Positions 11,868-32,927 of a stretch of DNA of 64,000 bases are shown here, piece by piece. Location of the stretch: NCBI GenBank assembly GCA_036004665.1, contig DASYRG010000029.1, positions 12,753 through 76,752 on the forward strand, given 5' to 3'. This stretch comes from a bacterium. GTDB taxonomy: Bacteria; Sysuimicrobiota; Sysuimicrobiia; Sysuimicrobiales; Humicultoraceae. Every line of letters begins with the position of its first letter. Positions within the stretch are counted from its first letter, which is position 1. A program made the translations under genes and the position numbers. The notes beneath the pieces are model-generated. The model made no database searches. It was not told the origin of the DNA and worked only from the letters and a program-made list of their open reading frames with translations.

Positions 11868-11980
11868 CGCGACCGAGCGCGCCGCGCAGGATTCGGCGGA
11901 GCCTGAACGAACACGAGACAGGATGCGCCGACCGCGCCTGATCGTTCCCGACGTCGACCCCCGCGAGGTGAGGCCGCGCC

Positions 11981-12607
11981 ATGTTCGCCGACTACCTGCG
12001 TGAACTCCAGCGGGTGCGCCTGCTCACCCCCGTAGAGGAAGCGGAGTGCTGGCGGCGCTTCCGCGGCGGCGGCGACGCCGAGAGTCGCCTGCGCCTGATC
12101 GAAGCCTACCAGCCCCTCGTCTTCAAGCTGGCGATGCAGCTGCAGCTCCCCCGGCCGAGGGTGATGGACTTCATCCAGGAAGGCACCGTCGGCCTGATCG
12201 AAGCGGTGGAGCGGTTCGATCCCACGCGTCGGGTCCGCTTCAGCACCTTCGCTGCCTACCGCATCCGGGGGCGAATGCTCAACGCCCTGGGGCGCCGCGG
12301 TCCGGAGCTCTCACTGGACCAACTCGTCGCCGACGAACTGGCGGCCGCCCTGGGCGACCTCGAGGCGGAGACGGCGCTGGCGCGTGTGGAGGACCGCGTC
12401 CTCGTCTCCCAGGTGGGGGCGGCGATCGCCGAGCTGCCTGAGCGGGAACGGGAGATTCTGCGAGCCTTCCTGATGCGCCGGGAGCCCCGCGCGGTCGCCC
12501 GGGGGCTGCGGATCAGCCTCTCCCATTTCTACCGGTTGCAGAACCAGGCGATCGCCCGTGTGCGCGCCATGTTGCGGGGGGCCGCCCCGGGTACCGGATC
12601 GCCCTGA
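11981..12607 (+). CDS. Sigma-70 family RNA polymerase sigma factor (group 3/4-like)
   Basis: Region 2 (LVFKLAMQL...DFIQEGTVGLIEAVERFDP...FSTFAAYRIRG) and a region 4 helix-turn-helix (ISLSHFYRLQNQAIARVRA). RBS GAGGTGAGG. Confidence 0.75.
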   Translation: MFADYLRELQRVRLLTPVEEAECWRRFRGGGDAESRLRLIEAYQPLVFKLAMQLQLPRPRVMDFIQEGTVGLIEAVERFDPTRRVRFSTFAAYRIRGRMLNALGRRGPELSLDQLVADELAAALGDLEAETALARVEDRVLVSQVGAAIAELPEREREILRAFLMRREPRAVARGLRISLSHFYRLQNQAIARVRAMLRGAAPGTGSP

Positions 12608-12687
12608 GCGTCTCCGCGGCGCGCGGCGGCGGCATGCGAGAGAGGCAGGCGGGGCGGGGATAGTAACTGAGGGAAGGCGGTATCGAA

Positions 12688-13311
12688 GTGGAGGAGGGAG
12701 TCCTGGTGTCGACTGACGTCAAGACCGCAAGGCGGCGCGATCAGCTCAGCCACCACATCGGGTTTGCCGAACGCTGGCTGACCCGGGCCAAAGGGGAGGT
12801 CGCCCGCGGTGATCTGGGCCGGGGCCAGCTCACGCTGCTGCTGGCCGAGGCGGAGATCCATCATGCCCGCGCGGCGGAGGGGGCGCCCGCCACGGCGCCG
12901 CGTCCGCACCCGGTGACGATGATCGTGGGCACGACCCTCCTGGCCGCCGCGCTCCTGTCCGGACTTGCCGCGGCGCTACCGCGGAGCACCGTGACTTCCG
13001 TGCTACCCTCCTCCCCTCCCATGATCCGGTTCAAGCAGCCGGTCGGCAGCACCCTTGCCCTGATCCCGATGGTCGCGGCGCCTCAGACCCCGACGCAGAT
13101 GCTCTCTGCTCCGGCGCGCGGGCCCGCCCTCGCTGGCGCCCCTCGAGCAGCGCCGCGGCGCTCGCCGGTCCGAACAGCCGTGCCGTCCCGGCCCGTGTCC
13201 ATTCCCGCGCCGCCGCTACCGGCCGCGGCGCCCCTGGTCCTCGTCTCTGACGGCGACTTGATCGACCTGGTCCTCGCAGCGGAGCGCTCGCTGCGCGGGG
13301 AGAAGCGGTAG
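12688..13311 (+). CDS. Single-pass membrane protein; possible anti-sigma factor
   Basis: Immediately downstream of the sigma factor. N-terminal cytoplasmic segment, one TM helix (MIVGTTLLAAALLSGLAAAL) and a Pro/Ala-rich extracytoplasmic tail. No recognisable catalytic motifs. Confidence 0.35.
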   Translation: MEEGVLVSTDVKTARRRDQLSHHIGFAERWLTRAKGEVARGDLGRGQLTLLLAEAEIHHARAAEGAPATAPRPHPVTMIVGTTLLAAALLSGLAAALPRSTVTSVLPSSPPMIRFKQPVGSTLALIPMVAAPQTPTQMLSAPARGPALAGAPRAAPRRSPVRTAVPSRPVSIPAPPLPAAAPLVLVSDGDLIDLVLAAERSLRGEKR

Positions 13312-13326
13312 GCGGTTTCACCAGGG

Positions 13327-15300
13327 ATGAAGATCGTCCTCCGCCGGCGCCGCTGGACCTGTGCCTGCACGTGGCTGGTCGTCATCCTTGCCCTCGCCCT
13401 CGGCACCGCTCAGCCGCCGCTCTTCGCTCAGACGCCGACTCCCACTCCGACGTCCTCGCCCACGCCGGCGCCCACTCCCCTGCCCGCACCGACCGCGACG
13501 CCGGTACCGGCTCCAGCCGCGCCCACCGCATCGCCGGCACCGGGAGCCACGCCGACCACCGCCCCGAGCCCTACCCCGACCGCGCGACCCACCCCGACGG
13601 CGACCCCGGCCGCGCCGCGTCCAGCAGCGACCGCCACGCCGGCGCAGCGTGTGATCGCCGTCGAGGTCGTCGGCAACAAGCAGATCGCCCTCGAGCGCAT
13701 CACCGAGGTGATCACAACGAAGGTGGGGGAGGTCCTCGATCCGGAGAAGGTCCGGCGGGATCTCGAGGCCATCCTGCAGCTGGGGTGGTTCGCGGACGTG
13801 TCGATCCGGGTGGAAACCGAACCGACGGGCGTGCGCGTGGTCTTTCTCATCGTGGAGAACCCCGTGATCAGCACGGTGGCAGTCGAGGGCAACACCGTCA
13901 TTGCGACGGAGGCGCTCATCGGCGCGCTGAAGGTCCCCCTTGGCCAGGTGTTGAACGCCCGCCAGCTCCGCGAGGGCATCAGGGCGGTCGAGCAGCTCTA
14001 TGAGAGCCGGGGCTACGTGCTGGCCCGGGTCACCGACGCCACGGTGGAGCCGGCCGGGGATGGCCGGCTGGTCATCCGGATCGCCGAAGGACGCGTGGAG
14101 GACATCGTCTTCCGCGGGCTCACCAAGACGAGGCCGCGCGTGGCCCAACGCTACCTGCGGATGAAGCGCGGCGACGTCTTCAACGTCGGGGCGATGAACG
14201 CCGATTTGCAGCGACTCTTCGACAGCGGACTCTTCGAGAACGTCCAGGCGCGCCCCCGCCCGGGCTCGGGACCGGACACCGTGGTCATCGAGATCGAGGT
14301 CAAAGAGGCCCAGACCGGGCGCATCGGCTTCGGCATCGGGTACAGCAGCGCCAGAGGGCTGATCGGACAGATCGAGTACGGCGAGCGGAACTGGCGCGGG
14401 ACGGGACAGTCCATCTCGCTGCGCATCGAGCGCGGGATCACCCGCGGGACCCTGGGGATCTCCAGCAAGCTCAACTTCCAGCTGAACTACCGGGAACCGT
14501 TCCTCGACGACCGGCCCACGACACTGGAGATCGGTCTCTTCGGGCTGTCGTCCATCCAATCGGAGGTGATCAGCAGGGAGACGACGTCACGCTTCGAGCT
14601 GGAGCGCACCGGCAGCTTCCTCGAGGTGGGCAGGCCGCTCGATGCGGTGACGACGCTCTCGCTGCGCGTGCGCTCGGAGCTGGCGGTGATCACGGCGCTG
14701 CCCCTCGATTCCAACAGCGAGGATTGTCCCTGCCCCCTCCCCAGCCTCTACAGCCCGGGCCGGACGATCTCGCTGCTGACCTCCGCCGTCAGGGAGACGC
14801 GGGACAGCCGGATCAACCCCACCCGCGGGAGCCGCCAGCTGCTGTCGCTGGAGGTGGGGTTGCCGGTGCTGGGTGGAGAGTTCTCCTTCCAGAAATACTT
14901 CGGCGAGTACATCCAGTACTTCTCCGTGGGGGCGGGCCACGTGGCCGCCCGCGCGCAGTTGGGGCTGGGCAGCGGCTTCATCCCCTTCCAGGAGTGGTAC
15001 GTCCTGGGCGGACCGACGACGCTGCGCGGGGCGCAGGCCGGCCAGTTCCGCGGCACCAGTATGGCGATGGTGAACGTGGAGTACCGCCATCCCCTCGGCG
15101 GCATCGCCTCGTTCCTCAAGGAATTCCAAGGCATCGTGTTCGTCGACGTGGGGGCGGCGCCGATCAGCGGAGGAGGCAACTTCTCAACCAGTTATGGCAT
15201 CGGCACCTCGTTCAACTCGCCCCTCGGCGTGATCCGGTTCGATCTGGCCTTCGGGCCGGGGGGAACCCAGACGTGGATCAACCTGGGCCAGCCCTTCTAA
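13327..15300 (+). CDS. bamA: Outer membrane protein assembly factor BamA (Omp85) with N-terminal Pro/Thr-rich linker
   Basis: Signal peptide, about 75 aa of PT-rich low complexity, POTRA-like repeats (VIAVEVVGNKQIALERI...VSIRVETEPTGVRVVFLIVENPVI...) and a C-terminal beta-barrel ending ...INLGQPF. Confidence 0.85.
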   Translation: MKIVLRRRRWTCACTWLVVILALALGTAQPPLFAQTPTPTPTSSPTPAPTPLPAPTATPVPAPAAPTASPAPGATPTTAPSPTPTARPTPTATPAAPRPAATATPAQRVIAVEVVGNKQIALERITEVITTKVGEVLDPEKVRRDLEAILQLGWFADVSIRVETEPTGVRVVFLIVENPVISTVAVEGNTVIATEALIGALKVPLGQVLNARQLREGIRAVEQLYESRGYVLARVTDATVEPAGDGRLVIRIAEGRVEDIVFRGLTKTRPRVAQRYLRMKRGDVFNVGAMNADLQRLFDSGLFENVQARPRPGSGPDTVVIEIEVKEAQTGRIGFGIGYSSARGLIGQIEYGERNWRGTGQSISLRIERGITRGTLGISSKLNFQLNYREPFLDDRPTTLEIGLFGLSSIQSEVISRETTSRFELERTGSFLEVGRPLDAVTTLSLRVRSELAVITALPLDSNSEDCPCPLPSLYSPGRTISLLTSAVRETRDSRINPTRGSRQLLSLEVGLPVLGGEFSFQKYFGEYIQYFSVGAGHVAARAQLGLGSGFIPFQEWYVLGGPTTLRGAQAGQFRGTSMAMVNVEYRHPLGGIASFLKEFQGIVFVDVGAAPISGGGNFSTSYGIGTSFNSPLGVIRFDLAFGPGGTQTWINLGQPF

Positions 15301-15311
15301 GCCGCCGCCGG

Positions 15312-16595
15312 CTGGCCGGGGGAACGGCCGCCGCGGCGCGGGGTCTGGTCCTGCTGCTCGCCCTGAGCGGGCCCGCCAAGGCGGCCGCCGTCGTGGTGCA
15401 GAGCGTCGACGTTCGCTTGGCCGTCGAGGGCGCCGGCCCGCCCCCGCTGGTGCGCGCCCGGCTGCAGGAAACGGTGGCGACGGTGGCCCAGCGGCTGCTG
15501 ATCGGCCGGGCGGTCGAGCAGCTGCGCCCCGCCCAGGCGCAGCTGCAGACGACGCTGGCGACTGTGGTCGACCGCGTCATCACCGGCTATTCGGTCACGG
15601 AGACGCGGCTCGAAGTCGGAGCGGCCACGGTCGTCGCCGTGCGGCTGCGCCCCGACCCCCCGGTGATCGCCGGCGTGGAGATTCTCCCCAAGACGGTGGT
15701 GCATCCGGCGGTCGCCCCGCTCGTGCTGGCACCGATCGATCACGAGGTCGCGCCGGCCGTGCGGACCATGCTGATGGGGCTGCCGGTGGAAGCGCTGGAC
15801 TGGGCAGGGCCGCTGATCGCCGAGGAGGCCCGCCGCGTCTCTGAATCGCTGCTGCCCGGGTTTGCCGCGGTGGTGCGGGTGCGGGGAGGGACGGCGGCCC
15901 GGGTGGAGATCGATCTGGCGGCCCGGGAGGGTCGGGTGGTGCGTGACATTGGAGTGCGTTTCCGGTCCTCCTCCATCCCGACGCTCCTGCTGGAAACCCA
16001 CGCGCCTGCGGTGACCTCGCTGGCCGAACCGGTACGGGGTCTGCCCGTCGTCTTTGCCGAGGGACACCGGGCAGACCTGGAGCGGCTGCTGGGCGAACGC
16101 CTGCGGGCCTACCCACCGGTCGGCCAGTACCACGTCGTCGTTCGACCGGTGCTGCGGGTGGCCGAGACCACCTACGTCACAGTGCTGGCCGATTCGCTGG
16201 CGTGGATGGGACGGGTCGAGGCCGTGGTGAACCTGGGCTCCCGCGCCCCGGCGCCGGAACTCCGGCTGCACCTCGGTCGTCTGTTTGATCGGTTCGAGCT
16301 CTTCGCCGAGGCGGCGATTCCCCCCAACACGTTCGCCGGCCGCTACGACCTGGGGGTGCGCTATCGGGTCACCGACGCGCTCGACCTGGGGAGCAACGTC
16401 GCGCTGAACGCGGTCGCAGTGACCCCCTGGGCAATTTACCGCCTCTCGCCAGACCTGAGCGTCCGGGCGGCGTATGAGATTCACCAGCGGCGCTTCGAAG
16501 GCGGCGTCCGCTACCGGTTCCACGAGTTCCTCTCGGGTGAACTGGTGGGGACCTCGGGAGGAGAGGTGTGGCTGCAGGTAATAAGCAACCTGTGA
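15312..16595 (+). CDS. Secreted hypothetical protein (~430 aa) between bamA and skp; start codon uncertain
   Basis: Long open frame starting immediately after the bamA stop, with a signal-like segment (RGLVLLLALSGPAKAAA). No ATG/GTG/TTG between the bamA stop and the signal peptide; a CTG at ~15312 is the only candidate. The C-terminal third has alternating-hydrophobic strands suggestive of beta structure. Confidence 0.45.
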   Translation: MAGGTAAAARGLVLLLALSGPAKAAAVVVQSVDVRLAVEGAGPPPLVRARLQETVATVAQRLLIGRAVEQLRPAQAQLQTTLATVVDRVITGYSVTETRLEVGAATVVAVRLRPDPPVIAGVEILPKTVVHPAVAPLVLAPIDHEVAPAVRTMLMGLPVEALDWAGPLIAEEARRVSESLLPGFAAVVRVRGGTAARVEIDLAAREGRVVRDIGVRFRSSSIPTLLLETHAPAVTSLAEPVRGLPVVFAEGHRADLERLLGERLRAYPPVGQYHVVVRPVLRVAETTYVTVLADSLAWMGRVEAVVNLGSRAPAPELRLHLGRLFDRFELFAEAAIPPNTFAGRYDLGVRYRVTDALDLGSNVALNAVAVTPWAIYRLSPDLSVRAAYEIHQRRFEGGVRYRFHEFLSGELVGTSGGEVWLQVISNL

Positions 16596-16639
16596 GCGTC
16601 CCTCCTGCGGCGCGCGGGGTATCCCCGCCCTTGATTGAC

Positions 16640-16670
16640 GGTGGCGTGTACAATGAGAGGGTTGTGTGAT
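16640..16670 (+). promoter_or_regulatory. Weak candidate promoter upstream of the skp-lpx-lpt operon (TACAAT -10-like element)
   Basis: Lower-GC intergenic stretch ...cttgattgacggtggcgtgtacaatgagag... upstream of the TTG start with RBS GAGGAGGAG. The -35 spacing is not canonical. Confidence 0.25.
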
Positions 16671-16714
16671 CGACAGCGAGAGATCATCTTGATATTCCTG
16701 AGGAGGAGAACATC

Positions 16715-17200
16715 TTGAAGGTCCTGCGCACCCGCATCCGGCAGAACCCACGCAAGGCCGGCCTCGTCGCCGTGGGCGGCATCATCGCGGTCCTCGTCGT
16801 CGTCGCGGCGGTACTCCTGGCCAGCCAGGGCGGAGCGCCGGTGTTCGGTCAGAGCTTCACCATCGGCTTCGTTGACATGCAGCGCGCCGTGGACGCGCAC
16901 CCGCGCAAGGCCGCCAGCGAGCGGGCCCTCCAGGAGTTCTTCCAGGCGAAGCAGCGGGAGTTCACGACGCGCAGCAAAGGGCTGAGCGTCGAGCAGCGTC
17001 AGTTGCTCGACCGGGAACTGCAGCAGCAGGTCGTCGCGAAGCGTCAGGAGTTGCTGGGCGGCATTGAGAAGGAGCTCCGCACCGCCGTCGAGGATGTCGC
17101 CCGCGCCCAGGGCGTCTCCATCGTCCTGGAGCGCGCCGTGGTGCTCTTCGGCGGCGTGGACCTGACCGACCAGGTCATCACGAAGGTGACCGGCAAGTAG
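16715..17200 (+). CDS. skp: OmpH/Skp-family periplasmic chaperone
   Basis: 161 aa: signal anchor, coiled-coil body, Skp-like pattern (FVDMQRAVDAHPRKAASERALQEF...GVSIVLERAVVLFGGVDLTDQVI). Confidence 0.7.
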   Translation: MKVLRTRIRQNPRKAGLVAVGGIIAVLVVVAAVLLASQGGAPVFGQSFTIGFVDMQRAVDAHPRKAASERALQEFFQAKQREFTTRSKGLSVEQRQLLDRELQQQVVAKRQELLGGIEKELRTAVEDVARAQGVSIVLERAVVLFGGVDLTDQVITKVTGK

Positions 17201-17204
17201 GGAC

Positions 17205-18308
17205 ATGACCCGGGCCGGCGGACTCCTCCTGCTGATGGCCCTGGCCGTCAGCGGCTGTGGGGGACGGGACTCGACCGCGGTTCCCGCACCCAGCCTCACG
17301 CCGGCGCTGACCCGCATCGCCGTCGTTGACCTGGATGCCCTCGTGCGGGCCCACCGCAGCTGGCCGGAGGTCGACGCCATCGCCAAGAAACTCACGGCGG
17401 TCGAGGCCGCGCTGGCCGCGCCGCCGGCGATCCCGCCGATCCTCCAACGCGAGGTGCAGGCTCGGCTGCGGGCCCAGTCCCGCCGGCTGGAGCGCGAATT
17501 CCAGGCGGAGATCGCCGCCCTGAAGAAGCGGCAGACCGAACGGATCGTCCTCTACGCCGCTCGCGTCCGCGTGGAGCAGCAGGCGGCGCTGGCGAAGCTG
17601 CGGGCGCAGGTCGACGCGGAACTCCAGCGGGTCATCGCCGAGCGCGTCCAGGCGGTGCGCGAGGAGCTGCGCCGGTATGAACTGCAGGTCTTCGATGAGT
17701 ACCGCTTCTCCATCGCCAACCTGCGGCTGAAGGCGGATGTCGTGGGCGTCGCCACCGAGGAGGAGCAGCGCCTGCTGATCGAAGAGCTGGATCGCGTGCT
17801 CCAGGAACGCGACGCCAAGGTGCGCGCGCGGGCGGAGGTGCTCGACGCCGTCGTGGTGGACTTCCGGCGGGCCCGCGAGGCAGAGGCCAACGCCACGCTC
17901 GCACGCGCCCGCGTTGCCGCCGAGGCCCTGACGAAACGCCTCATCCTCGCAAAGGAGCGGGAGATCCAGGCGGAAACCACCCGGATCGGCAAAGCCAGGG
18001 AGGCGGAATTCCGGCGCCGGTTATCCGCGTTTCGCCGCCGCCTCACAGGGATCGAGGAAAGCCAGATGGGCACCGCTCAGCGCCGCTTTGTCGAGGGGCT
18101 GCGCCAGCGCGAGCAGCAGCTGCTGGCGCAACGGCAGGCCCTCACCGAGCAGCGGCTGCGGCTGGAGGACACTATCCTGGCCGACGTGAAGATCGAGGTG
18201 GCGGGGATCGCGGCCGCCCGGGGGCTGGACGTCGTGCTCACCCGGCTGATCGCCAGGGTGAGCGGTGAGGACATCACGCAGGAGGTCCTGGCCCGCCTGA
18301 AGCGGTAG
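17205..18308 (+). CDS. OmpH/Skp-like lipoprotein, long coiled-coil paralogue (367 aa)
   Basis: Lipoprotein signal (LLLLMALAVSGCGG), extended Arg/Glu-rich coiled coil and a Skp-like C-terminus (GLDVVLTRLIARVSGEDITQEVLARL). Confidence 0.55.
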   Translation: MTRAGGLLLLMALAVSGCGGRDSTAVPAPSLTPALTRIAVVDLDALVRAHRSWPEVDAIAKKLTAVEAALAAPPAIPPILQREVQARLRAQSRRLEREFQAEIAALKKRQTERIVLYAARVRVEQQAALAKLRAQVDAELQRVIAERVQAVREELRRYELQVFDEYRFSIANLRLKADVVGVATEEEQRLLIEELDRVLQERDAKVRARAEVLDAVVVDFRRAREAEANATLARARVAAEALTKRLILAKEREIQAETTRIGKAREAEFRRRLSAFRRRLTGIEESQMGTAQRRFVEGLRQREQQLLAQRQALTEQRLRLEDTILADVKIEVAGIAAARGLDVVLTRLIARVSGEDITQEVLARLKR

Positions 18309-18309
18309 C

Positions 18310-18738
18310 ATGCGCAGCCGTCGCCCCGTCTCGGCACTCATCCTGGTGGTCGTCTGCTCCTTCGCTCTGTCCGCGTGCGGCTCCGCCGCCCTGGCTCTTG
18401 TGGACAGCGATCGCGTGCTCAACGAGAGCGTGCGGGCGCTCTCCTTCCAGAGAGAACTCGACGCCCGCGAGAAGGCGATGGCCTTCGACCTTCAATTGCT
18501 CAGCAGCCAGCTGCCGGCCGCCGACCTGGAGGCGCGCCGCAATCAATACCTCAGAGAACTGCAGCAGATGAAGAGCGATTTCGAAGCGCGCTTGAATAAG
18601 GAGATCCGCGAGATGGTCATCCAGATCGTCCGGGAACGCGGCCTCCGCGCCGCCGTCATCGTGAAGGAACCGGTGCTCTACTCGGTGCCGGGCCGCACCG
18701 TGGACATCACCGACGAGGTGATCGCCAAACTCAAGTGA
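18310..18738 (+). CDS. OmpH/Skp-like lipoprotein, short paralogue (142 aa)
   Basis: Lipobox-type signal (FALSACGS), then ...[27 protein letters not shown]...[25 protein letters not shown]. Confidence 0.55.
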
Positions 18739-19811
18739 TCCCCATCCGCCTCGGCGAGCTGGCGACCCGCCTCGGCGGAACCGTAGCGGGCGACCCCATG
18801 GTCGAGGTGACGGGGGTGGGGACGCCGGAGCACGCGGCCCCGGGAGATATCGTCCTGGCCGCAGATGCCGGCGCGCTCGAGCGGGCGGAGGCCGGAAGGG
18901 CGGGGGCGGGAGAGGCGGCGGCTGTGCTGATCCCCGAGGACCTGACCCCGCGGCGGCTGCCGGCGATCCGCTCGGGCAACGTCCGCCTGGCCTTTGCGCG
19001 TCTCCTCGAGCACTTCTCCCCGCCGCCCTCGCGCGCCCCGGGCGTCCATTCCAGCGCGGTCATCAGCCCCGACGCCCTGGTGGCGCCCGACGCCAGCGTC
19101 GGCCCGCTGGTCGTACTCGGGGCGCGGGTCCGCGTGGGCGCGCGCTCGACCGTGCAGGCGGCCGTGGTGGTCGGAGACGACGTCAGCATCGGCGCCGACT
19201 GCCTGATCTATCCCCACGTCACCATCCGCGAGGACACGATCGTGGGCGACCGCGTCATCCTCCATCCGGGCGTGGTCTTGGGCAGCGATGGGTTTGGGTA
19301 TGCTCGAGGGGAGTCGGGGCCGGTGAAGATCCCCCATCTCGGGCGGGTGGTCATCGAGGACGACGTGGAAATCGGGGCGAACACGACGATCGATCGGGGC
19401 ACGCTGGGTGAGACACGCGTGGGGCGGGCCACCAAAGTCGACAACCTGGTGCAGATCGCACACAACGTGCGCATCGGCCGCGCCGTGCTGATTGTGGGGC
19501 AGGTGGGAATCGCCGGCAGCGTCACCATCGGCGACGGCGCCACCCTGGCGGGGCAGGCGGGCGTGCCCGATCACCTCACCGTCGGGCCGGGGGCGACGCT
19601 CCTTGCCCGAGCGGTGCCGACGAAGGACGTGCCGGCCGGAGCCGTACTCTCGGGATTCCCCGCCCGACCGCACCGGGAAGAACTGCGTCTGCAGGCGCTG
19701 CTGCGACGGCTCCCGGACCTGGTCGCGCGGAGGGACGACTCCCCGCGCCGGAGACGACGCACCGCAAAGAAGAAGGATGGCCCCGAGCGGGCGGGGAAGG
19801 GGCAGCGGTGA
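18735..19811 (+). CDS. lpxD: UDP-3-O-(3-hydroxyacyl)glucosamine N-acyltransferase
   Basis: Left-handed beta-helix hexapeptide repeats plus a GFGY...[24 protein letters not shown] core. Basic Arg/Lys-rich C-terminal tail. GTGA overlap with the preceding skp paralogue. Confidence 0.85.
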
Positions 19812-21613
19812 CGGTGCGTCGCGCCCTGGTGTCGGGGGCGGCGCTCGCCTGCCTCCTGGCGCTCACCGCGATCCCGGGCGCGGGAGCCGGCGGACCGCCT
19901 CTGCAGGTGGTGATCCAGCCCGGGGGGCTGCCGGTCGCCACGGTGATCGTCCAGGATGTGGCGGTGCTCAGACTCCGCGGACCGGACGCCAGGACGCGCG
20001 CCACCGAGGTCGCGCGCCGCCTGGGCGAGATCCTGGCGGACGGGGCCCACCCGCTCGTGGTCGGCGTGGCCGCTCGAGGGAAGGCCGCCGACCTGTTGCT
20101 GAACGGACGGCGCCTTGTCACGGTGGATGCGACCGCGGCGCGGGGCGCGGGGTCGGTCCCGCTCGCCCTCGCCCGCGTCTGGGCGGATCAGCTCCGAGAA
20201 GCCCTCTCCCGCAACACGGTCACCCTGACCCCCGCGCTGCTCGTGCTACGCCCGGGGGAACGTGCCGCCGCGTCGGTCACTGCCTTCCTGCCGGGGCCCG
20301 TGACGATCGGCCCTCACGATGAGCGAGTGGCGGTGGCCCAGATCGTGGGCGGAGTGGTCTCCGTGGAGGCGCGGGGGATCGGCTCGACCGCGGTGCCGGT
20401 GATCGTGGGGGCGGGGCAGGCCCCGCTGACCGTGGTGGTGCGCCGGCCCGCCGGGGTGATCCCTCAGACCGTGACGGTGCGGGTGACCGGCGAGCTGAGC
20501 GCGGCCCTCGTTCGTGAGGCGGTGCAGCGGAAGATCGAGCAGAGCGTCCTGCGAGAACCCGGAGCATCCCTCGCAGTGGGAGCGATCCACGTCGATGAGA
20601 CGGCGCTGGCCGGCCCGGATGCTCCCGAGATGCTCGTCCCCGTCACCGTGCGCAGTCCCTATGCGCTGCCGGTCGACGGGGTGATCCGCGTGACCCTCGT
20701 GCGCGAGCAGGTCGAGATCGCAGACCCGGCGCTCCTGCTGGTGTCGAACCGTCCGGAAGCGGTGCTGGCCGACGGCGTGCTCTTTGAGGAGGTGGTGGAC
20801 GCCCGGCGTCCCACGCGGCTGCTCTACCATCACCAGAACGGATCCGCCGACCACTCCCGGGTGCTGACCGTCGCGCTGACCAACCGCGCCGACCATCCGG
20901 CCGCCCTCCTCCTGATCAGCGGGCTGGCCGGTCCATCTCCTGATTCCCTCTTCGTCGGATCGGCGGCCACGGGACGCTTCCTGCAGAACCTGGCGGCGGG
21001 GCGAGGGTATGTCCTGGAGATGCCTGCGCGTACAACCTACGCCTTTGTGGCGCAGACGATGGCTCCGCTGCAGCTGGTCTCCGGCATCCTCCAGTTTCAG
21101 CTTCTGGAGGGTGAGGAGCTCGAGATACGCATCGCCGCCCGCCTGCCCTGGCTGCTCGACCGCACGGTGGCGATTCCGGTCAATCAGATCGCCTACCCCC
21201 ATCCCAAAGGGGTCTTCGCCGATCCCACCATCGCGGTGGTCCGCACCGTGGACCTCCTGACCCCTACCCACCTTGTCGATCTGGGGTGGGTCGCCGGCCT
21301 GCGCGACCTGCGGACGGACGAACGCCTCGTCGGCGACTACGGTGTGGTCTACCGGCTCACCGTCACTGCGGCCAACCCTTCCCCGATCGAACTGCGCGCC
21401 GATCTGGTGGCGACCGCCGCCGGAGGAGCGGCCCGAGGGGTCTTTCTCATCGACGGCCGCCTCGTGGAGATGGCCATCTACAAGGGGTTTGAGGAGCGAA
21501 CGCTGGCGACGCTGGCGGTGCCGCCGGGGGAGCGGCTGATCACGCAGATCCTGACGATGCCGACGGCTGGGTCCTACTATCCCGTGCGCCTCAGCCTGCG
21601 ACCGCAGCCGTGA
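19808..21613 (+). CDS. Secreted hypothetical protein (601 aa), translationally coupled between lpxD and lpxC
   Basis: Signal peptide ([23 protein letters not shown]). No recognisable catalytic motif. The GTG start overlaps the lpxD stop and the stop overlaps the lpxC GTG start (GTGA at both ends). Confidence 0.55.
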
Positions 21614-22485
21614 AGGCCGCGACGGGGGACTCGCGGGTGGCTGTGAAGCTGGCGCAGGGCACGATCGGGCGCCCGGTGACAATGACCGGGGTCGGCCTGC
21701 ACACGGGGGCGCCGGTGCGCCTCCGGCTGGAGGCGGCCCCGCCCGGCAGCGGAATCGTTTTTCGCCGCCTCGATCGCCCCGAAACCGCGGCCATCGGCGC
21801 CACCCTCGCGGCGGTGTGGGAGACGCGCCGCGGCGTCACGCTCCGCTCCGGCGACGGGACGGTGGCCACCGTGGAACACCTGCTCTCAGCCGCGGTCGGA
21901 ATGGGGATCGACAACCTTCGCGTCGAGGTCGAGGGGCCGGAACTCCCGGCGCTGGACGGCAGCGCCGCCGGCTTTACGCGGGCGCTCGAGGAGGGGGGGC
22001 GCGTGGATCAGCGCGCGCCCGCGCGGGAGATCCGCCTGGGAGCCTGCGAGGTTGTCGAGGGGCAGAGCCGGGCCATGACGAGTCCCGGGGAAGAGTCACG
22101 GTTCGCCTACACGGTGGAGCTGCCGGCGCCGCTGGGGAGGATGGTCTTCTCCGCAAGCCTGGAGGGCTACCGCGAAGATATCGCTCCGGCGCGCACCTGG
22201 GGATTCGCCGCAGACGCCGCCGCGCTCGAAGCGGCGGGCCTGGCCCGCGGGGCGTCGCTGGAGAACGTGCTGGTGATCGGGGCGGAGGGGTACATCAACG
22301 CGCCGCGCTTCTCTGACGAGCCGGCCCGTCACAAGGTTCTCGACCTGATCGGCGACCTGGCGCTCCTGGGGGCGAGAGTGCGGGGGCACGTGGCGGTCAC
22401 CGCCGGCGGGCACAGTCTGCACCTGGCACTGGCCCGGGAGATCGCCCGCCGCTGGGGATCGGGCGCGGAGAGAGAGGTGGGGTGA
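21610..22485 (+). CDS. lpxC: UDP-3-O-acyl-N-acetylglucosamine deacetylase
   Basis: [31 protein letters not shown]...TVEHLLSA... is the LpxC N-terminal pattern. Length 291 aa. Confidence 0.85.
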
Positions 22486-23024
22486 TGGAAGAGGGCGGGC
22501 GGATGGATGCGGCACAGATTCTCACCATCCTGCCGCACCGCTATCCCTTCCTGCTGGTCGACCGGATTCTCGAGGTGGGAGAGCGTCGGATTGTGGGCAT
22601 CAAGACTGTCACGGTCAACGAGCCCTTCTTTGCCGGCCATTTCCCGGGTCATCCGGTGATGCCGGGCGTGCTCATCGTGGAGGCGATGGCGCAGGTGGGG
22701 GCCTGCCTCATCCTGAACCGACCGCACCTGCAGGGCCGCGTGGCCTACTTCGCCGGTATCGACCACTGCCGCTTCCGCCGCATGGTCATCCCGGGCGACA
22801 CGCTGCGCATTGAGGTGGAGGTGCGCGCCCTGCGCGGTCGAATCGGCAAGCTCTGGGCGACCGCACGGGTGGGCGACGACCCCGCGGCCGAAGCCGAGAT
22901 TACGTTTGCCCTCCCCGAAGCTGAAGTGGGTGCCCTCCCCGAATCTGAAGTGGGTGCCGTCCCCGAACCCGACGTGAGCCTCCCCGAACGACGCCCAGTA
23001 CCCTCAGAGGACGGCGGAGGGTGA
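22482..23024 (+). CDS. fabZ: 3-hydroxyacyl-ACP dehydratase FabZ with a repeat-containing C-terminal extension
   Basis: [17 protein letters not shown]...[20 protein letters not shown] hot-dog fold. The C-terminus carries about three copies of a ALPE(A/S)EVG(A)(L/V)PE repeat (DNA 22906-22990). Confidence 0.85.
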
Positions 23025-23878
23025 GCGCGCCGCGCCGCGCCGCGGCGGCAGCCTCGGTCCCGGAGATCCATCCCACGGCGGTCGTGGCCCCGGGAGCCCA
23101 CCTCGAGGCGGGCGTGGTGGTCGGTCCCTATGCCGTAGTGGGAGAGGACGTGACCATCGGCGCCGGCACGCGCATCGGACCGCACGTGGTGATCGAGGAG
23201 GGCGTCCGCATCGGCCGGGACAACGTCATTTCGACGGGCACGATCATCGGCTGCCTCCCCCAGGATCGCAAGTTCCTCGGCGAACGCAGCCACGTCGTCA
23301 TCGGGGACCGCAACCTCATCCGCGAGTACGCGTCGATCAGCCGTGCCACCGGCGCCGGGGAAGCGACGACGATCGGCAGCGACAACTTCGTCATGTCCTA
23401 CGTGCGCATCGACCACAACGCGCGACTGGGGAACCGCGTCGTCCTGGTCGGCGGCTCGATGGTCGCCGGGCACGTCGAGGTGGACGACGACGCTTACGTC
23501 AGTGGGATGACGGGGCTGCACCAGTTCGTGCGGGTGGGGCGGCTGGCCATGATCGGCGGGTACACGATGCTGCGGCAGGATTGCCCACCGTTCATCCTGG
23601 TCACCGGGGTGCCGGGACGCGCCCGGGCGCTGAACCTGGTGGGTCTGAGGCGAAACGGCGTCGCGGCGGCGGACCGCTCGGCGCTGCGCCGGGCGTTTCA
23701 CATCTTTTACCAATCGCAGTTGGGGAGAACGCGGGCACTGGCCGCACTGGTGGACGAACTCGGCGACCATCCCCTGGTCAGGGAACTCATCGACTTCCTT
23801 CAGACATCCCGCGGCAGCCGCCGCGGGTTGGTGCGATGGTCGGGACAGACCGAGCCGGAGAGCGACCCCGAGCCGTAG
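23021..23878 (+). CDS. lpxA: Acyl-ACP--UDP-GlcNAc O-acyltransferase
   Basis: Hexapeptide-repeat beta-helix followed by the LpxA alpha-helical C-terminal domain (...[28 protein letters not shown]...[10 protein letters not shown]). Confidence 0.85.
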
Positions 23879-24690
23879 GGCTACTGGCGGGGGAGGGGCG
23901 CCTGCCGGAGGTGCTGGCGGAGGGGGTCCGCCGCGCCGGAGGGACCCTTGTTTGCGTACAGATGGCCGGGTCAAGTCCGCTCCTCAAATCGACCGCCGAC
24001 GTCTTTGCGCGGATGGAGCCCGGCGACTGGGAGCGACTGTTCGACATCTGGAAGGCGCACGGGGTGAGTGAGGTTCTGCTGGCCGGGCGCTTCAACCGGG
24101 TCGCGCTGCCCGCCGCCCTCGCCGGAGGCGACGAGGCCGCCCGTGCCTTCCTGGCGCAGCACTCCGAGCGGGGCGATCAGCACTTCCTCCAGACGTTTGC
24201 CAGGATGCTGGGGGGGATGGGCATCGCCGTCATCGACCAGCGGACCTATGCGCGGGACCTGATCCCCGGACCGGGCCGGCTGGCCGGATCTCCTCTCTCC
24301 TCCGAAGAGGAGCGGGACGTGGCCCTGGGGCTTGGCGTGGCCCGGACGCTGGCGGAGCAGGAGGTCGGCCAGACCCTCATCCTCAAGGGAGGGGTGATGC
24401 TGGCGGTGGAGGCGGCTGAGGGGACTGACGCGGCCATCCGTCGCGGAGGCGCAATGGCTCCGGCGGCCGTGGTGGTCAAGGTCAGCCGCCCCCGTCAGGA
24501 CCCCCGCTTCGATCTGCCGACGATTGGGCCGGAGACGGTGGAGGCGATGGCGGCCGTCCGGGCAAGAGTTCTCGCCGTCGAAGCGGGGCGCACTATCGTC
24601 CTCGCCAGGGAGACGCTGGCCGCGGCGGCGGTGCAGGCCCGCATCACCGTCACCGCCGTCGAGGCGCCGCCGCTGCCTGGTGTCCCCTAG
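23836..24690 (+). CDS. lpxI: UDP-2,3-diacylglucosamine hydrolase LpxI (DUF1009 family)
   Basis: [12 protein letters not shown]... N-terminus and overall DUF1009 pattern. Placed between lpxA and lpxB as in LpxI-using lineages. Start taken as the in-frame ATG at 23836 inside the lpxA 3' end. Confidence 0.6.
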   Translation: MVGTDRAGERPRAVGLLAGEGRLPEVLAEGVRRAGGTLVCVQMAGSSPLLKSTADVFARMEPGDWERLFDIWKAHGVSEVLLAGRFNRVALPAALAGGDEAARAFLAQHSERGDQHFLQTFARMLGGMGIAVIDQRTYARDLIPGPGRLAGSPLSSEEERDVALGLGVARTLAEQEVGQTLILKGGVMLAVEAAEGTDAAIRRGGAMAPAAVVVKVSRPRQDPRFDLPTIGPETVEAMAAVRARVLAVEAGRTIVLARETLAAAAVQARITVTAVEAPPLPGVP

Positions 24691-25903
24691 CCTCTTTCTC
24701 GTCGCCGGCGAGGTGTCCGGCGACATCTATGGGGCCGATCTCATCGCCGCCCTCCGCCGGCGCCGCCCCGACCTCGCGCTGATCGCCGTGGGCGGACCGC
24801 GGATGGAGGCGGCCGGGGCGCGACGCGTCCTCTCGAGCGAGGAGTGGGGCCTCATCGGGTGGCTGGAGGCGCTGCCCCGGGTGCCGGTTTTTCTCCGCCG
24901 CCGGGCCGCGGTGACCCGAGCGATCCAGTCCGCCGACCCCGCCGCCGTCGTGCTAATCGATTTCCCCGGCTTCAACCTGTCACTGGCCCGCCGGCTGGCG
25001 GGGCGGAGGCCGGTGGCCTACTTCATGCCGCCGATGGTCTCGACACGCCGCGGCGATCGGGCCGGCCGCATCGCGCGCCTGGGATTGCGGCTGCTCGCGG
25101 CCTTCCCGTTCGAAGCCGAGGCCTACCGGCGCGCCGGGGCCGACGTGGTTTTCATCGGTCATCCCGCGCTCGACCGCGTGCGCCCCAGCGCCGATCGGAC
25201 CGGCGTCCGCGCCCGGCTGGGCGTGACACCCGACGCGCCGGTCGTGGCCCTATTACCCGGGAGCCGCCGCCAGGAACTGGCCCGCCATCTCCCCATCATG
25301 GTCGAGGCGCTCTCGCTCGTGAGGCGGCGCGTCCCGCAGGTCCGGGCCGTCCTGCCCGTCGCGGCGCGGCTGTTCCAACCCGTTGTTGAACGGTTGGTCG
25401 CCGCCTCCCCGGTGCCGGTCGCGCTCGTGCCGGGCGGGACCCAGGAGGGCTATGACGCGCTGTCGGTCAGCGATTTCGCCGTGGTCGCGTCGGGGACGGC
25501 GACGCTGGAAGCGATGTGCCTGGGGCTTCCCATGCTGGTCGTGTACCGTGTTTCGGCGCTCACCGCTTGGTATGCGAGGCGGTTCGTGGTCGCTGTCTCC
25601 ACCGCCGCGCTGCCCTCGCTGCTGGCGGGGCGTCCCGTAGTGCCGGAGCTGCTGCAGGAGGCGTTCACCGCCGAGGCGGTGGCGGCGATGGTCTTGGCGT
25701 GGCTGGCCGACGCAGCCGGCCGAGCGGCGCTGTCCGCGGAACTGCTCGCTCTCCGCGGCCGTCTCGGTGAGGGAGGGGCTGCCGAGCGCGCCGCCGAGGA
25801 GATCCTGCGCCTGACGCCGCGGTCCGGCCCGACGCCAGATCCCCTGTCGCCTGTCTCACTCGGAGCGGCCGCGGGCCCGACCAGAGGAACCCCGGCGCCG
25901 TGA
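24680..25903 (+). CDS. lpxB: Lipid-A-disaccharide synthase
   Basis: SLFLVAGEVSGDIYGADLIAAL... N-terminus typical of LpxB (GT19). GTG start overlaps the lpxI 3' end. Confidence 0.8.
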   Translation: MSPSLFLVAGEVSGDIYGADLIAALRRRRPDLALIAVGGPRMEAAGARRVLSSEEWGLIGWLEALPRVPVFLRRRAAVTRAIQSADPAAVVLIDFPGFNLSLARRLAGRRPVAYFMPPMVSTRRGDRAGRIARLGLRLLAAFPFEAEAYRRAGADVVFIGHPALDRVRPSADRTGVRARLGVTPDAPVVALLPGSRRQELARHLPIMVEALSLVRRRVPQVRAVLPVAARLFQPVVERLVAASPVPVALVPGGTQEGYDALSVSDFAVVASGTATLEAMCLGLPMLVVYRVSALTAWYARRFVVAVSTAALPSLLAGRPVVPELLQEAFTAEAVAAMVLAWLADAAGRAALSAELLALRGRLGEGGAAERAAEEILRLTPRSGPTPDPLSPVSLGAAAGPTRGTPAP

Positions 25904-26508
25904 GCCGGCGTGCCCTTGCGGCGATCGCCGCAGCCGCGGTCCTTCTGGCGGGACTCTGGGCGGTCATGAGGAGTGGTCCTCCCGCGGTCCGCGGACCCGG
26001 AAGCGCACCGTCTTCTCCGCCCCCGAGCCCGGCGGCTGCGAGGCCGTCGGCGATCTCGCGGGCGACGGCGACGCCCGCGCTCCCATCGATCAGGATCGAG
26101 GAGAGCCGGATCCGCGGCGCCGATCCCGCCGGTCGGGTACAGTGGGAACTGCGGGCGACCGGCCTCCAGGTAGACGCCGACCGTGAGGAGGTCCGCCTGA
26201 CGGGCGTGGAGGGGACGTTTCTGGAGAAGGGCAAGCCCGCGGTTACCTTCATCGCCCCGCGCGCGCTCTTTGCCATGCAGACGCGGGACATTATCCTCAC
26301 CGGGGGCGTACGCGCCCGCGCCGGCGACGATCGGTCGGTCGAGGCCCGGGAGATCCGCTACCTTGCCGCCCGACGTGTGCTGATCGCCAGCGGGGGCGTC
26401 CGCCTGATGCAAGAACGGATGATTGTGCGGGCCGACCGTCTGGAGAGCGACGTGGCTTTGCGGCGGACCCGGCTGACCGGGCACATCACCGTCACGATCA
26501 GGGAATGA
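25900..26508 (+). CDS. lptC: LptC-like protein (membrane-anchored LPS export component)
   Basis: N-terminal signal anchor, then an OstA-like beta-jellyroll pattern (EEVRLTGVEGTFLEKGKPAVTFIAP...IILTGGVRARAGDDRSVEAREIRY...). Position between lpxB and lptA. Confidence 0.5.
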   Translation: MSRRALAAIAAAAVLLAGLWAVMRSGPPAVRGPGSAPSSPPPSPAAARPSAISRATATPALPSIRIEESRIRGADPAGRVQWELRATGLQVDADREEVRLTGVEGTFLEKGKPAVTFIAPRALFAMQTRDIILTGGVRARAGDDRSVEAREIRYLAARRVLIASGGVRLMQERMIVRADRLESDVALRRTRLTGHITVTIRE

Positions 26509-26518
26509 AAAGGACGAG

Positions 26519-27361
26519 ATGACGCACAGGCGTGCGGCACTGCTCCTGGCAGCCGGCCTGGTGATGGCGGTCCTGCTCCCACCCTCGGGCGCAGCGGCTG
26601 AATCCGCTCTCCCCACCGCACAAGGGTTGCCGATAGAAGTGAGCGGCGCCGCTTTTGCGGAGTTCGACTCGCGCGCCGGCACCTGGATTCTGCGGGGCGC
26701 TCCCGTCGTGATCACGCGGGGACCAACGCGGTTGGAGGCGGCGCAGATTCGCTACGCGGAGCGCGCCGGTATCGCCGTGGCCTCCGGAGGGGTGGTCGTG
26801 CGTCATGAAACGATGACGCTGCGATCGCGAGAGGCGGAGGGGCGGTTGCGGGAACAGGTCGTCGTCGCGCAGGGCGATGTGGCGGTGACGGAGCGTCGCC
26901 CCGAAGGGGAGGCCCGGCTCACCGGCGGGCGGGTGGAGGTCTTTCTGGCCGAGCGGCGAGCCGAGGCCACCGGCCGGCCTCTCCTCAGCCATCGCGGCGG
27001 GCAGCTGACCGCCGAGCGCATCAGCTACGACTGGAGAGCGCAGACAGCGGCGGCCACCGGCGGCGCCGCCCTGGTCCTGCCGGAAGGGCGGATGAGCGCC
27101 GACCGCATGACGGCGGCCCTCGCCGCCGAAACCCTGGAGGCGACCGGAGGAGTGCGCCTCTCCAGCCAGGACGTGGTGGCCACCGCGCCCCGTGGGCTCG
27201 TTGACCGGCGGGGGGGGACAGCGCTGTTGTCCGGGGGCGTCCTGGTCCGCCGCGGTCCCGATACCCTCTCCGCCGAGACGGTGACCGTCGACCTGCGCAC
27301 GCGTCGGATCGTCGCCACCGGCGCGCCCCGCCTTGTGATCGGCAGCGCCGGAGGGAATTGA
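26519..27361 (+). CDS. lptA: LptA (OstA-like periplasmic LPS transport protein)
   Basis: Signal peptide plus repeated OstA-N-like strands. Directly upstream of lptB. Confidence 0.6.
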   Translation: MTHRRAALLLAAGLVMAVLLPPSGAAAESALPTAQGLPIEVSGAAFAEFDSRAGTWILRGAPVVITRGPTRLEAAQIRYAERAGIAVASGGVVVRHETMTLRSREAEGRLREQVVVAQGDVAVTERRPEGEARLTGGRVEVFLAERRAEATGRPLLSHRGGQLTAERISYDWRAQTAAATGGAALVLPEGRMSADRMTAALAAETLEATGGVRLSSQDVVATAPRGLVDRRGGTALLSGGVLVRRGPDTLSAETVTVDLRTRRIVATGAPRLVIGSAGGN

Positions 27362-27362
27362 G

Positions 27363-28079
27363 GTGCTAGCCGCGCGGGGATTGGTCAAACGGTACGGCGC
27401 CCGGACGGTCGTCAACGGGATCACCCTGACGGTGGAACGGGGGCAGATCATCGGCCTGCTGGGGCCGAACGGCGCTGGGAAGACGACCACTTTTTATATT
27501 ATGGTCGGGCTGGTCCGGCCCGACCGGGGCGAGGTGTGGCTGGACGAGTCGGAACTCACGCACCGCCCCGTCCACGAACGGGCACGCGCGGGGATCGGCT
27601 ACCTCGCCCAGGACCCCTCGGTCTTCCGCGGCCTCACCGTCGAGGAGAACATCCTTGTCGTCCTCGAGGCCAACGGCAAGGCGCCGCAGGCGCGGGCCGC
27701 GGTGCTGGAGCACCTGCTGGAGGAGTTCGGGCTGCAGACCGTGCGGCGCCAGGTGGGCGCCTCCCTGTCTGGTGGTGAACGGCGCCGGGTCGAGATTGCG
27801 CGGGTGCTCGCCATGGAGCCCGCCTACATCCTTCTCGACGAGCCCTTCACCGGGATCGACCCCAAGTCGGTGGCGGAGATCCAGGAGGTCGTGCGCTACC
27901 TGCGCGCCCGAGGCCTGGGGGTGATCGTCACCGACCACAACGTCCGCGAGACCCTCGCCATCACCGACCGCTCCACCATCATCTACGACGGGTCGGAGCT
28001 CTTCACCGGCACCGCCGAGGAGATCATGGAGAGCCCCGAGGCGCGCCGCTTCTACCTGGGCGAGCGCTTCCAAATGTAA
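27363..28079 (+). CDS. lptB: LPS export ABC transporter ATP-binding protein
   Basis: Walker A (LLGPNGAGKTTTFYIM), LSGGE signature and the LptB-like length of 238 aa. Confidence 0.85.
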   Translation: MLAARGLVKRYGARTVVNGITLTVERGQIIGLLGPNGAGKTTTFYIMVGLVRPDRGEVWLDESELTHRPVHERARAGIGYLAQDPSVFRGLTVEENILVVLEANGKAPQARAAVLEHLLEEFGLQTVRRQVGASLSGGERRRVEIARVLAMEPAYILLDEPFTGIDPKSVAEIQEVVRYLRARGLGVIVTDHNVRETLAITDRSTIIYDGSELFTGTAEEIMESPEARRFYLGERFQM

Positions 28080-32584: not shown

Positions 32585-32810
32585 GGGAGGTGCTTCCCCG
32601 GCGCCTATGGAACATGCACGCTGCGAGCGCAGGTGGACGGAGCAACCCTCCGTCAGAATAGGGAAGCCGGTGACTCACCGATCGCCCGTGTGCGGCCCGG
32701 TGAGGAGTCCGGCGCGGTCCCGCCGCTGTCACGGGGAGCGTGCCCTCCCGCACGACGCCACTAGGCCCGCCGCCATTTCGGCGGTCCCGGGTCCGGGAAG
32801 GCTGAGGGTC
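32585..32810 (+). ncRNA. Putative cobalamin (B12) riboswitch in the leader of the TonB-dependent receptor gene
   Basis: Contains GGTGC..., AATAGGGAAGCCGGTGA, GGTGAGGAGTCCGG, a GTCCCGCCGCTGTCACGGGGA block (B12-box-like; consensus GCCACTG, here GCCGCTG) and a downstream GGGAAGGC element. Ends about 120 nt upstream of the receptor ATG. Confidence 0.5.
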
Positions 32811-32927
32811 ACGCGAGGAGCCGGAGCCAGAAGACCTGCCTGCGCTTTCCAGACCGGTATCGCCGCCGCGGCTTCTACAGCAAGCGCGGCGACGGGCCAC
32901 GCCTTCGCGGAAGGGGGTGGGTCTTCT

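Follow-up and report, generated by a model that had tools for sequence, protein, structure and literature searches.

Gene X within the lipid A operon

In a 64,000-nucleotide stretch of the Sysuimicrobiota contig DASYRG010000029.1 (positions 12,753 to 76,752; here, the window), an open reading frame (ORF) of 601 amino acids (aa) with a GTG start, which we call gene X, occupies positions 19808..21613 of the plus strand between two lipid A genes, lpxD and lpxC. The upstream neighbor, lpxD (18735..19811, +), encodes UDP-3-O-acylglucosamine N-acyltransferase (Pfam Hexapep, 4.1e-25; LpxD N-terminal domain, 9.2e-09), and the downstream neighbor, lpxC (21610..22485, +), encodes UDP-3-O-acyl-GlcNAc deacetylase (Pfam LpxC, 1.3e-78, with a domain match from residue 16 onward). 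A previous reading of this DNA, made from the sequence only, had described the ORF as joined to both neighbors by overlapping codons, and all of these features were confirmed. The GTG of X (19808-19810) and the TGA of lpxD (19809-19811) share a 4-nt overlap (GTGA, 19808-19811), and the TGA of X (21611-21613) overlaps the GTG of the longest lpxC ORF (21610-21612) in the same way (GTGA, 21610-21613). A purine-rich, Shine-Dalgarno-like motif, GGGGAAGGGG (19793..19802, +), can be read inside lpxD, at its 3′ end, with 5 nt separating it from the GTG of X, and presumably serves in ribosome binding. An alternative start of X is GTG 19814. For lpxC, the alternatives are GTG 21637 or 21643, behind GGGGGA (21624-21629), and these would leave a 23- to 29-nt spacer after X and no overlap. 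Further 4-nt overlaps join Skp3/LpxD, LpxC/FabZ, FabZ/LpxA, LpxA/LpxI, and LpxB/LptC. Because such overlaps are common to the whole operon, those of X demonstrate operon integration and nothing peculiar to X, which is as integrated in the operon as the true lpx genes. The stoichiometric co-expression proposed in the sequence-only reading may accompany this arrangement.

The GC contents of the three codon positions of X are 0.78/0.50/0.86 (GC3, 0.855), and lpxD, lpxC, and lpxA show the same pattern. Compared with the closest fetched locus (L006, 75% amino acid identity), the dN/dS ratio of X is ∼0.2. A homologue search with X as the single query returned 52 full-length proteins at 30 to 100% identity, and the same 52 proteins were found when a 90-sequence alignment (A2) was used as the query; full-length homologues reach down to ∼25% identity. 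A profile search over 1.84 billion cluster representatives yielded 2213 clusters (50% identity) at E ≤ 1e-3 and 607 at E ≤ 1e-30, and the length is ∼600 aa in nearly all of the 150 cluster matches listed. A chance ORF in DNA of 71% GC is ruled out by the GC3 value, the dN/dS ratio, and the presence of homologues in low-GC genomes. Thus, X is a real gene under selection. The protein was previously described as rich in Val, Ala, and Arg; all three are abundant, with Leu ranking ahead of Arg (in descending order, Ala, Val, Leu, Arg, Gly, and Pro).

A 478-aa antisense ORF lies opposite X (20246-21682, −), and its GC1 (0.835) exceeds its GC3 (0.758), unlike in X and its neighbors. Long antisense or overlapping ORFs occur throughout the window (e.g., 484 aa at 15297-16751). 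We take these ORFs to be artefacts of the 71% GC content rather than genes, on the basis of the one ORF checked (20246-21682).

The signal peptide predicted previously is well supported. It comprises aa 1 to 28 (19808..19891, +), with the basic start MTVRR, a hydrophobic core, and the sequence PGAGAGG. The sole hydrophobic segment of X is the N-terminal window of aa 5 to 25, with no other transmembrane segment, and a basic and hydrophobic N terminus is shared by 71 of 80 diverse homologues. AlphaFold2 (AF2) models a helix at residues 2 to 19, followed by a linker of low pLDDT (residues 17 to 28). The twin-Arg of the X N terminus is not conserved among homologues, so export probably proceeds through Sec, and Tat export was rejected. 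A lipoprotein was rejected as well, since X has no lipobox: C15 lies outside any such motif and is not conserved, and a lipobox-like motif was found in only 2 of the 80 relatives. X therefore carries the features of a Sec-exported soluble protein, with a predicted cleavage, and is most likely exported in this way. The mature protein would have a mass of 60 kDa, a pI of 8.2, and no Cys.

Conservation of gene order among relatives

A scan covering one genome per GTDB species found 131 relatives, of which 80 loci were kept. The scan was made with an alignment (A1), and the 80 loci are biased toward A1-like motifs. Genes in the loci were annotated by phmmer with the cluster proteins of the window, and the counts given here include a few additional loci found by exact-protein look-up. 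The closest relatives are metagenome-assembled genomes (MAGs) of CSP1-3 (now Sysuimicrobiota), which are often labeled “Armatimonadota bacterium” at NCBI; “Armatimonadetes bacterium CSP1-3,” “Ca. Geohabitans,” and “Ca. Fervidifonticultor” are among them.

The arrangement LpxD-X-LpxC, in the same order and on the same strand, was found in 53 fetched loci from the Sysuimicrobiota and the Vulcanimicrobiota/Eremiobacterota, including Xenobia. Seven further loci are cut by a contig end and retain one of the two lpx neighbors. The arrangement is present in every Sysuimicrobiota locus with enough flanking sequence (39 to 76% identity to X) and in Vulcanimicrobiota/Xenobia loci at 27 to 33% identity, where the order is BamA-Skp-unknown-LpxD-X-LpxC-FabZ-GFO/IDH/MocA oxidoreductase-LpxA-LpxB. 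The unclassified MAG ADurb.Bin363 (L091) carries BamA-Skp-?-Skp-LpxD-X-LpxC-FabZ, followed by further genes. In a Margulisiibacteriota MAG (L090), in which X is 25 to 30% identical, LpxC follows 1 nt after X; no BamA or Skp was recognized in this 7-kb contig. A 4-nt overlap of the form NTGA joins the lpxD stop and the candidate X start in 28/53 loci, and an NTG follows or overlaps the X stop in 37/53 loci, 22 of which were confirmed to be in the lpxC frame. Thus, X is kept between lpxD and lpxC, often with overlapping codons, in at least three Terrabacteria phyla.

These loci bear out the proposal of the sequence-only reading that X is a conserved exported member of a lipid A/outer-membrane cluster. 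The same synteny was the check that it had set: LpxD-X-LpxC is kept in the 53 loci, and the X-lpxC adjacency extends to the Margulisiibacteriota. The description of X as lineage-specific does not hold for a family of more than 2000 clusters (50% identity) in at least three phyla. That lpxD and lpxC are normally adjacent, as had also been assumed, is true of Terrabacteria-type clusters and not of the Proteobacteria.

Six loci deposited as “uncultured Burkholderiales bacterium” (L034, L035, L039, L040, L043, and L057) contain a Vulcanimicrobiota-type cluster, BamA-Skp-?-LpxD-X-LpxC-FabZ-?-LpxA-LpxB, and their X proteins group with those of Xenobia and Vulcanimicrobiota. The taxonomy of these records is probably wrong.

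In the window, X is part of a co-directional outer-membrane cluster that extends from TamB through LptF/G (7476..29146, +), was identified by Pfam matches, and recurs in the same order in related loci with precomputed Pfam annotation. The cluster begins with TamB (7476-11867, +), a sigma factor, an anti-sigma-like gene, BamA (13327-15300, +), an unknown 431-aa gene, and three OmpH/Skp-like genes and continues with LpxD, X, LpxC, FabZ and LpxA (both confirmed by Pfam), LpxI, LpxB, LptC (25900-26508), LptA (26519-27361), LptB, and a single LptF/G. LptC and LptA were both detected by Pfam at 1e-10. Downstream of the Lpt genes are a PMT/ArnT-like transferase, DUF3084, a TonB-dependent receptor and TonB (32607-35611, +), and an OmpM-type protein with an SLH domain and a porin-like barrel (36529-38019, +). 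A scan for promoters and terminators inside the cluster gave counts no higher than those of shuffled sequence. X thus lies inside the TamB-BamA-Skp-Lpx-Lpt block of the Terrabacteria-type “diderm” cluster (Antunes et al. 2016), a position that is kept in relatives. With the hallmark Terrabacteria diderm genes, OmpM among them, present in the cluster, the Sysuimicrobiota appear to be OmpM-tethered diderms with a full OmpM-type gene set; the 2024 description of the phylum does not mention the envelope (PMC11604079).

Domain architecture and possible roles of X

AF2 modeling of X with a 47-sequence alignment gave a pLDDT of 90 and a pTM of 0.76, with four domains. D1 (aa 32 to 133; 19901..20206, +) is an alpha/beta domain (b3-a-b3-a-a, from the AF2 secondary structure) in which A111, L121, A122, and W125 are near-invariant; it corresponds to no known family and is absent from the Margulisiibacteriota and Bacillota-type forms. 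D2 (aa 138 to 211; 20219..20440, +) is a Big_2-like Ig beta-sandwich. In the AF2 model, D3 (aa 221 to 300; 20468..20707, +) is a small alpha/beta domain (b-a-b-b-b) with an invariant G228. D4 (aa 309 to 601), which was modeled alone at a pLDDT of 90.3 and a pTM of 0.90, consists of two weakly related halves (hhalign probability 78%, E = 1.7e-5). D4a (aa 309 to 445; 20732..21142, +) is a jelly-roll-type beta-sandwich with a helix at 380-396, and D4b (aa 467 to 599; 21206..21604, +) is a second beta-sandwich, also defined from the AF2 model. Conserved residues are S313, N314, P316, E317, R337, H342, N344, N359, P376, G384, and S425 in D4a and G509, Y511, G512, Y515, N523, T583, P585, S589, Y591, and P592 in D4b.

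Three architectures occur in the family. The D1-D4 form is found in the Sysuimicrobiota, the Vulcanimicrobiota/Eremiobacterota, including Xenobia (“Ca. Bruticola”), and the Armatimonadota; the D2-D4 form is found in the Margulisiibacteriota, in ADurb.Bin363, and in second-site copies in the Baltobacteraceae; and the D3-D4 form is found in Bacillota-labeled MAGs, behind a signal peptide and a long Pro/Ser-rich linker. Homologues of this last type begin at profile position ∼222, and D3 plus D4, ∼380 aa, is the conserved core of the family. Among 80 sequences with a mean identity of ∼30%, D4 holds 27 of the 33 positions conserved at ≥90%, many of them polar. At ∼25 to 30% identity, 13 polar residues remain conserved at ≥90%: R337, H342, N359, N523, and Y591 are invariant, and E317 and N314 are conserved at 99%. 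In the model, the conserved D4 residues lie at strand ends and in loops of both sandwiches. This concentration of polar conservation suggests that D4 holds a specific functional site, whether for binding or for catalysis.

The observation in the sequence-only reading that X has no recognizable enzyme motif was upheld: X matches no Pfam family at E ≤ 0.1 and no NCBIfam model, the latter being true of the 80 relatives also. Searches for PDB families gave nothing above threshold for X, and PDB sequence profiles matched the Ig domain only. The fold searches were made against PDB libraries, and D1 and D3 were not searched singly. D2, the only domain with Big_2-like character, is closest to the Ig-like domains of the S-layer proteins SbsC/Sap. 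Such domains (Big_2, SbsC/Sap, and PF13629, T2SS-T3SS_pil_N) are generic modules, and D2, at 12% of X, is uninformative on function. D4 resembles a range of tandem binding-type sandwiches, namely, the SID1/SIDT ectodomain, the C-terminal domain of Clostridium perfringens enterotoxin (CPE), the ColG collagen-binding domain, carbohydrate-binding modules, botulinum HA70, and CUB. About 100 residues align, at 5 to 13% identity and with TM-scores of ≤0.25; the likeness is therefore one of fold class and not of family, and the ligands of these modules are mutually unrelated.

One catalogued family shows a faint sequence likeness to X. Weak matches to DUF3370 (PF11850) were found in 34 of the 80 diverse relatives and in 23 of 47 close ones, always at the same place, where the GxYGVxY...NPT motif of X (∼aa 502 to 545) is aligned to model positions 297 to 333. 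The relatives score 10 to 25 bits, with one at 25.1 against the gathering threshold of 25 bits, and two carry a precomputed PF11850 label; X itself stays below 25 bits on the 422-position model. DUF3370 is an uncharacterized family of ∼450 to 530 aa described from cyanobacteria. The D3-plus-D4 core (∼380 aa) fits the length of its model, and the Margulisiibacteriota member links the X family to the cyanobacterial neighborhood. In contrast, only ∼30 residues ever align, and X is longer at its N terminus by two domains (D1 and the Ig domain). A plasmid tblastn for a cyanobacterial DUF3370 copy gave no match, and a third homologue search returned Armatimonadota-type members only. On these sequence similarities, X probably belongs to a DUF3370-like superfamily as a divergent branch with an N-terminal extension, a placement that gives this orphan Pfam family its first functional context. 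We found no literature on DUF3370/PF11850, to which no function is assigned, and the link therefore explains no mechanism of X. Nor did we find a publication on the X gene, its family, or any gene between lpxD and lpxC. The folds of X are commonplace modules, and its family can at most be counted as a remote offshoot of a DUF already catalogued.

How diderm Terrabacteria (Negativicutes, Cyanobacteria and relatives, Eremiobacterota, and CSP1-3) build and maintain an outer membrane with lipopolysaccharide (LPS) is an open question. To our knowledge, Lol, LptE, BamB-E, Tol-Pal, and Lpp are all missing from these groups. The operon position of X across at least three phyla, its export, its conserved pocket-like residues, and the lack of a characterized relative together give a specific candidate, open to testing, for one of the components that are missing. 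In the reading we favor, X, a four-domain soluble envelope protein, has long belonged to the Terrabacteria-type outer-membrane/lipid A cluster. Once exported, it would act on what the co-transcribed pathway produces, either in the periplasm or on the inner face of the outer membrane. A putative D4 pocket lined by S313, N314, E317, R337, H342, N344, N359, S425, Y515, N523, S589, and Y591 would recognize, and possibly process, the sugar-phosphate head that is conserved in lipid A/inner core, with the Ig-like and alpha/beta domains serving as spacers or docking modules. In diderms without the outer-membrane lipoprotein helpers of the Proteobacteria, X could then help to deliver LPS, insert it, control its quality, or modify it. 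We infer the compartment, the ligand, the partners, and the choice between binding and catalysis. We give this reading, an LPS-handling accessory recognizing and possibly processing the lipid A/core head group through D4, a probability of roughly 40%.

Several results weigh against it. Full-length homologues in the Armatimonadota (L003, L088, and L089) are not beside lpx genes, and the D2-D4 copies of the Baltobacteraceae and the D3-D4 Bacillota-labeled forms also lie away from them. The neighborhoods of these homologues contain Na/H exchanger, GHL10, ClpB, and MacB-like ABC genes, with the Bacillota-type short forms adjoining a MacB-like ABC transporter. It follows that the core module of X has no obligatory link to lipid A genes, and the obligate membership in the lpx operon claimed in the sequence-only reading must be given up in view of the Armatimonadota and Bacillota-labeled homologues located elsewhere. 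In low-GC Xenobia MAGs from the gut, the gene order is kept with gaps of 100 to 260 nt; hence, translational coupling is not universal. Since BamA, Skp, and TamB are encoded in the same cluster, position alone cannot separate a role in LPS handling from one in outer-membrane protein (OMP) or lipid transport. Finally, X shows no similarity to the known LPS-binding folds (the LptA/C/D jellyroll and LptE). The OstA beta-jellyroll bridge (LptA, LptC, and the LptD N-terminal domain) offers a partial parallel, being periplasmic and all-beta and, for LptA and LptC, encoded in the operon of X; X has no match to PF03968/PF06835, under conditions in which the LptC and LptA of the window were detected.

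A bolder version of the proposal, which we regard as unlikely, is that X and its presumed cyanobacterial DUF3370 relatives represent an ancestral, Terrabacteria-specific component of outer-membrane biogenesis, soluble and exported, that would recognize or process periplasmic lipid A/core and fill the role that such outer-membrane lipoproteins as LptE have in the Proteobacteria. It could act in LPS receipt and insertion at the outer membrane or in a new periplasmic step of lipid A maturation. If this were true, X would be a new essential player in outer-membrane construction by diderm Terrabacteria.

The best-surviving rival, although also doubtful, is that X is a periplasmic or surface enzyme from a new family (for example, a peptidoglycan or envelope-glycan hydrolase or lyase or a lipid A modifier), with its site in the cleft between the sandwiches and an operon position that reflects co-regulation only. 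Thirteen polar residues conserved at such low identity form a pattern seen more often in enzymes than in proteins that simply bind, and their location at strand ends and loops of both sandwiches suits an active site. The D3-D4-only forms with Pro/Ser linkers outside the lpx context would fit a ligand broader than LPS. Nevertheless, the best structural neighbors of D4 are noncatalytic binding modules, and X offers neither a Cys nor a recognizable metal motif.

We consider it rather improbable that X assists OMP or lipid assembly together with BamA/Skp or TamB, where it would in part stand in for absent BamB-E or SurA-type helpers. Just upstream lie BamA, three Skp-like genes, and TamB, in an order shared by relatives, and the linkage of Skp to lpxD shows that outer-membrane genes with different functions stay together. 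However, the tightest and most widely kept adjacency of X is with lpxC, which extends to the Margulisiibacteriota locus, and X resembles no known chaperone or BAM lipoprotein.

Still less probable is a structural envelope protein (a periplasmic spacer, an outer membrane-peptidoglycan tether, or a surface-layer-like protein) that is scaled to outer-membrane growth and has no specific LPS chemistry. The modular architecture, the SbsC/Sap-like Ig domain, the signal peptide, and the long Pro/Ser linker of the D3-D4 forms are compatible with such a protein, but X has no SLH, OmpA-like, or other wall-binding domain, a tether is already supplied by the OmpM of the cluster, and the invariant polar residues of D4 argue for a specific site. 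To the same low degree, X might be a passenger, unrelated to the envelope and fixed in the operon by ancestral chance, in which case the finding would be a conserved hypothetical gene only. The homologues in unrelated neighborhoods in the Armatimonadota, the Baltobacteraceae, and Bacillota-labeled MAGs favor this possibility. Against it, the lpxD-X-lpxC position with overlapping codons is kept in at least three phyla at 25 to 30% identity, which is hard to explain without selection for co-expression, and both X and what the pathway makes are exported.

The sequence-only reading had suggested that X might be an analogue of LptD or LptE. X as an outer-membrane beta-barrel is ruled out in practice: the high-confidence model consists entirely of soluble sandwich and alpha/beta domains, with neither the 26-strand C-terminal barrel nor a match to the N-terminal OstA jellyroll of LptD, and a protein without a barrel cannot be LptD. 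No LptD is encoded within the 64-kb window, as that reading had stated. This absence is uninformative, since in Veillonella parvula LptD is also encoded outside the diderm cluster and was recognized only by proteomics (PMC5491611). Terrabacterial diderms have no recognizable LptE, and unknown neighbors of lptD in V. parvula (Vpar_0645/0646) have been proposed as equivalents (PMC5491611, PMC5007114, PMC8871954). X shares with LptE and Vpar_0645/0646 its export and its genetic tie to LPS, in organisms or pathways whose LPS transport is ill defined at its outer-membrane end. Vpar_0645/0646 adjoin lptD, unlike X between lpxD and lpxC. LptE is a small lipoprotein of ∼20 kDa that plugs LptD, whereas X, a soluble multidomain protein of 60 kDa when mature, is ∼3 times as large and has neither the lipobox Cys nor a PF04390 match. 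That X replaces LptE, or partners a divergent LptD at the outer-membrane LPS translocon, is thus the least probable of the readings, despite its export, its predicted co-transcription with lpx and lpt genes, and the lack of a recognizable LptE in these lineages.

PbgA (YejM, LapC) of the Enterobacteria offers a parallel that is conceptual only. PbgA has a large periplasmic domain and couples the LPS status of the periplasm to LpxC levels, as a multipass inner-membrane protein that acts through LapB/FtsH. X differs in having a single N-terminal signal peptide and a cytoplasmic end of at most 5 residues, and the two proteins share no sequence or fold similarity.

Other genes of the cluster and of related loci

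The ∼431-aa gene directly after BamA (15300-16595, +) encodes a protein with a signal-peptide-like start, no Pfam match, and a C-terminal region of ∼130 aa that resembles amphipathic beta-strands. Every Sysuimicrobiota locus has a homologue at this place (417 to 437 aa in L001 and L004), and the protein may be associated with BamA or form a small barrel. Two of the three OmpH/Skp-like genes (17205-18308 and 18310-18738, +) have lipobox-like signal peptides (..LAVSGC.. and ..ALSAC..), and the middle gene encodes an unusually long coiled-coil form of 367 aa; lipoprotein variants of Skp would be noteworthy in a lineage expected to be without Lol.

Between TamB and BamA (11981-13311, +), a sigma-70 family (ECF-like) factor is encoded with a 207-aa partner that has no Pfam match, and the pair is kept at the same place in Sysuimicrobiota loci. 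This placement suggests a dedicated envelope-stress regulator within the outer-membrane cluster. Directly upstream of TamB, a 638-aa protein (5409-7325, +) has a weak match (1.1e-07) to the SpoIVB peptidase S55, a sporulation-type protease family, here in a non-sporulating candidate phylum.

Related loci showed further variation in the lpx genes. The GFO/IDH/MocA oxidoreductase gene between fabZ and lpxA (13100-14110 in L037; 12861-13886 in L091) is GnnA-like by position and absent from the Sysuimicrobiota clusters; it hints at a GlcN3N-type lipid A in the Vulcanimicrobiota and ADurb.Bin363. In the “Ca. Geohabitans” group, two LpxA paralogues flank LpxI (L004, 13312-15844, with the same layout in L011). 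In several Xenobia loci, the LpxB homology segment measures ∼2.5 kb, roughly double the normal length, and lpxD is present a second time, on the opposite strand. Outside the lpx context, a ∼420-aa protein without a Pfam match is encoded one to two genes downstream of the Armatimonadota-type X homologue (5793-7043 in L003; 13556-14833 in L088) and may be a conserved partner there.

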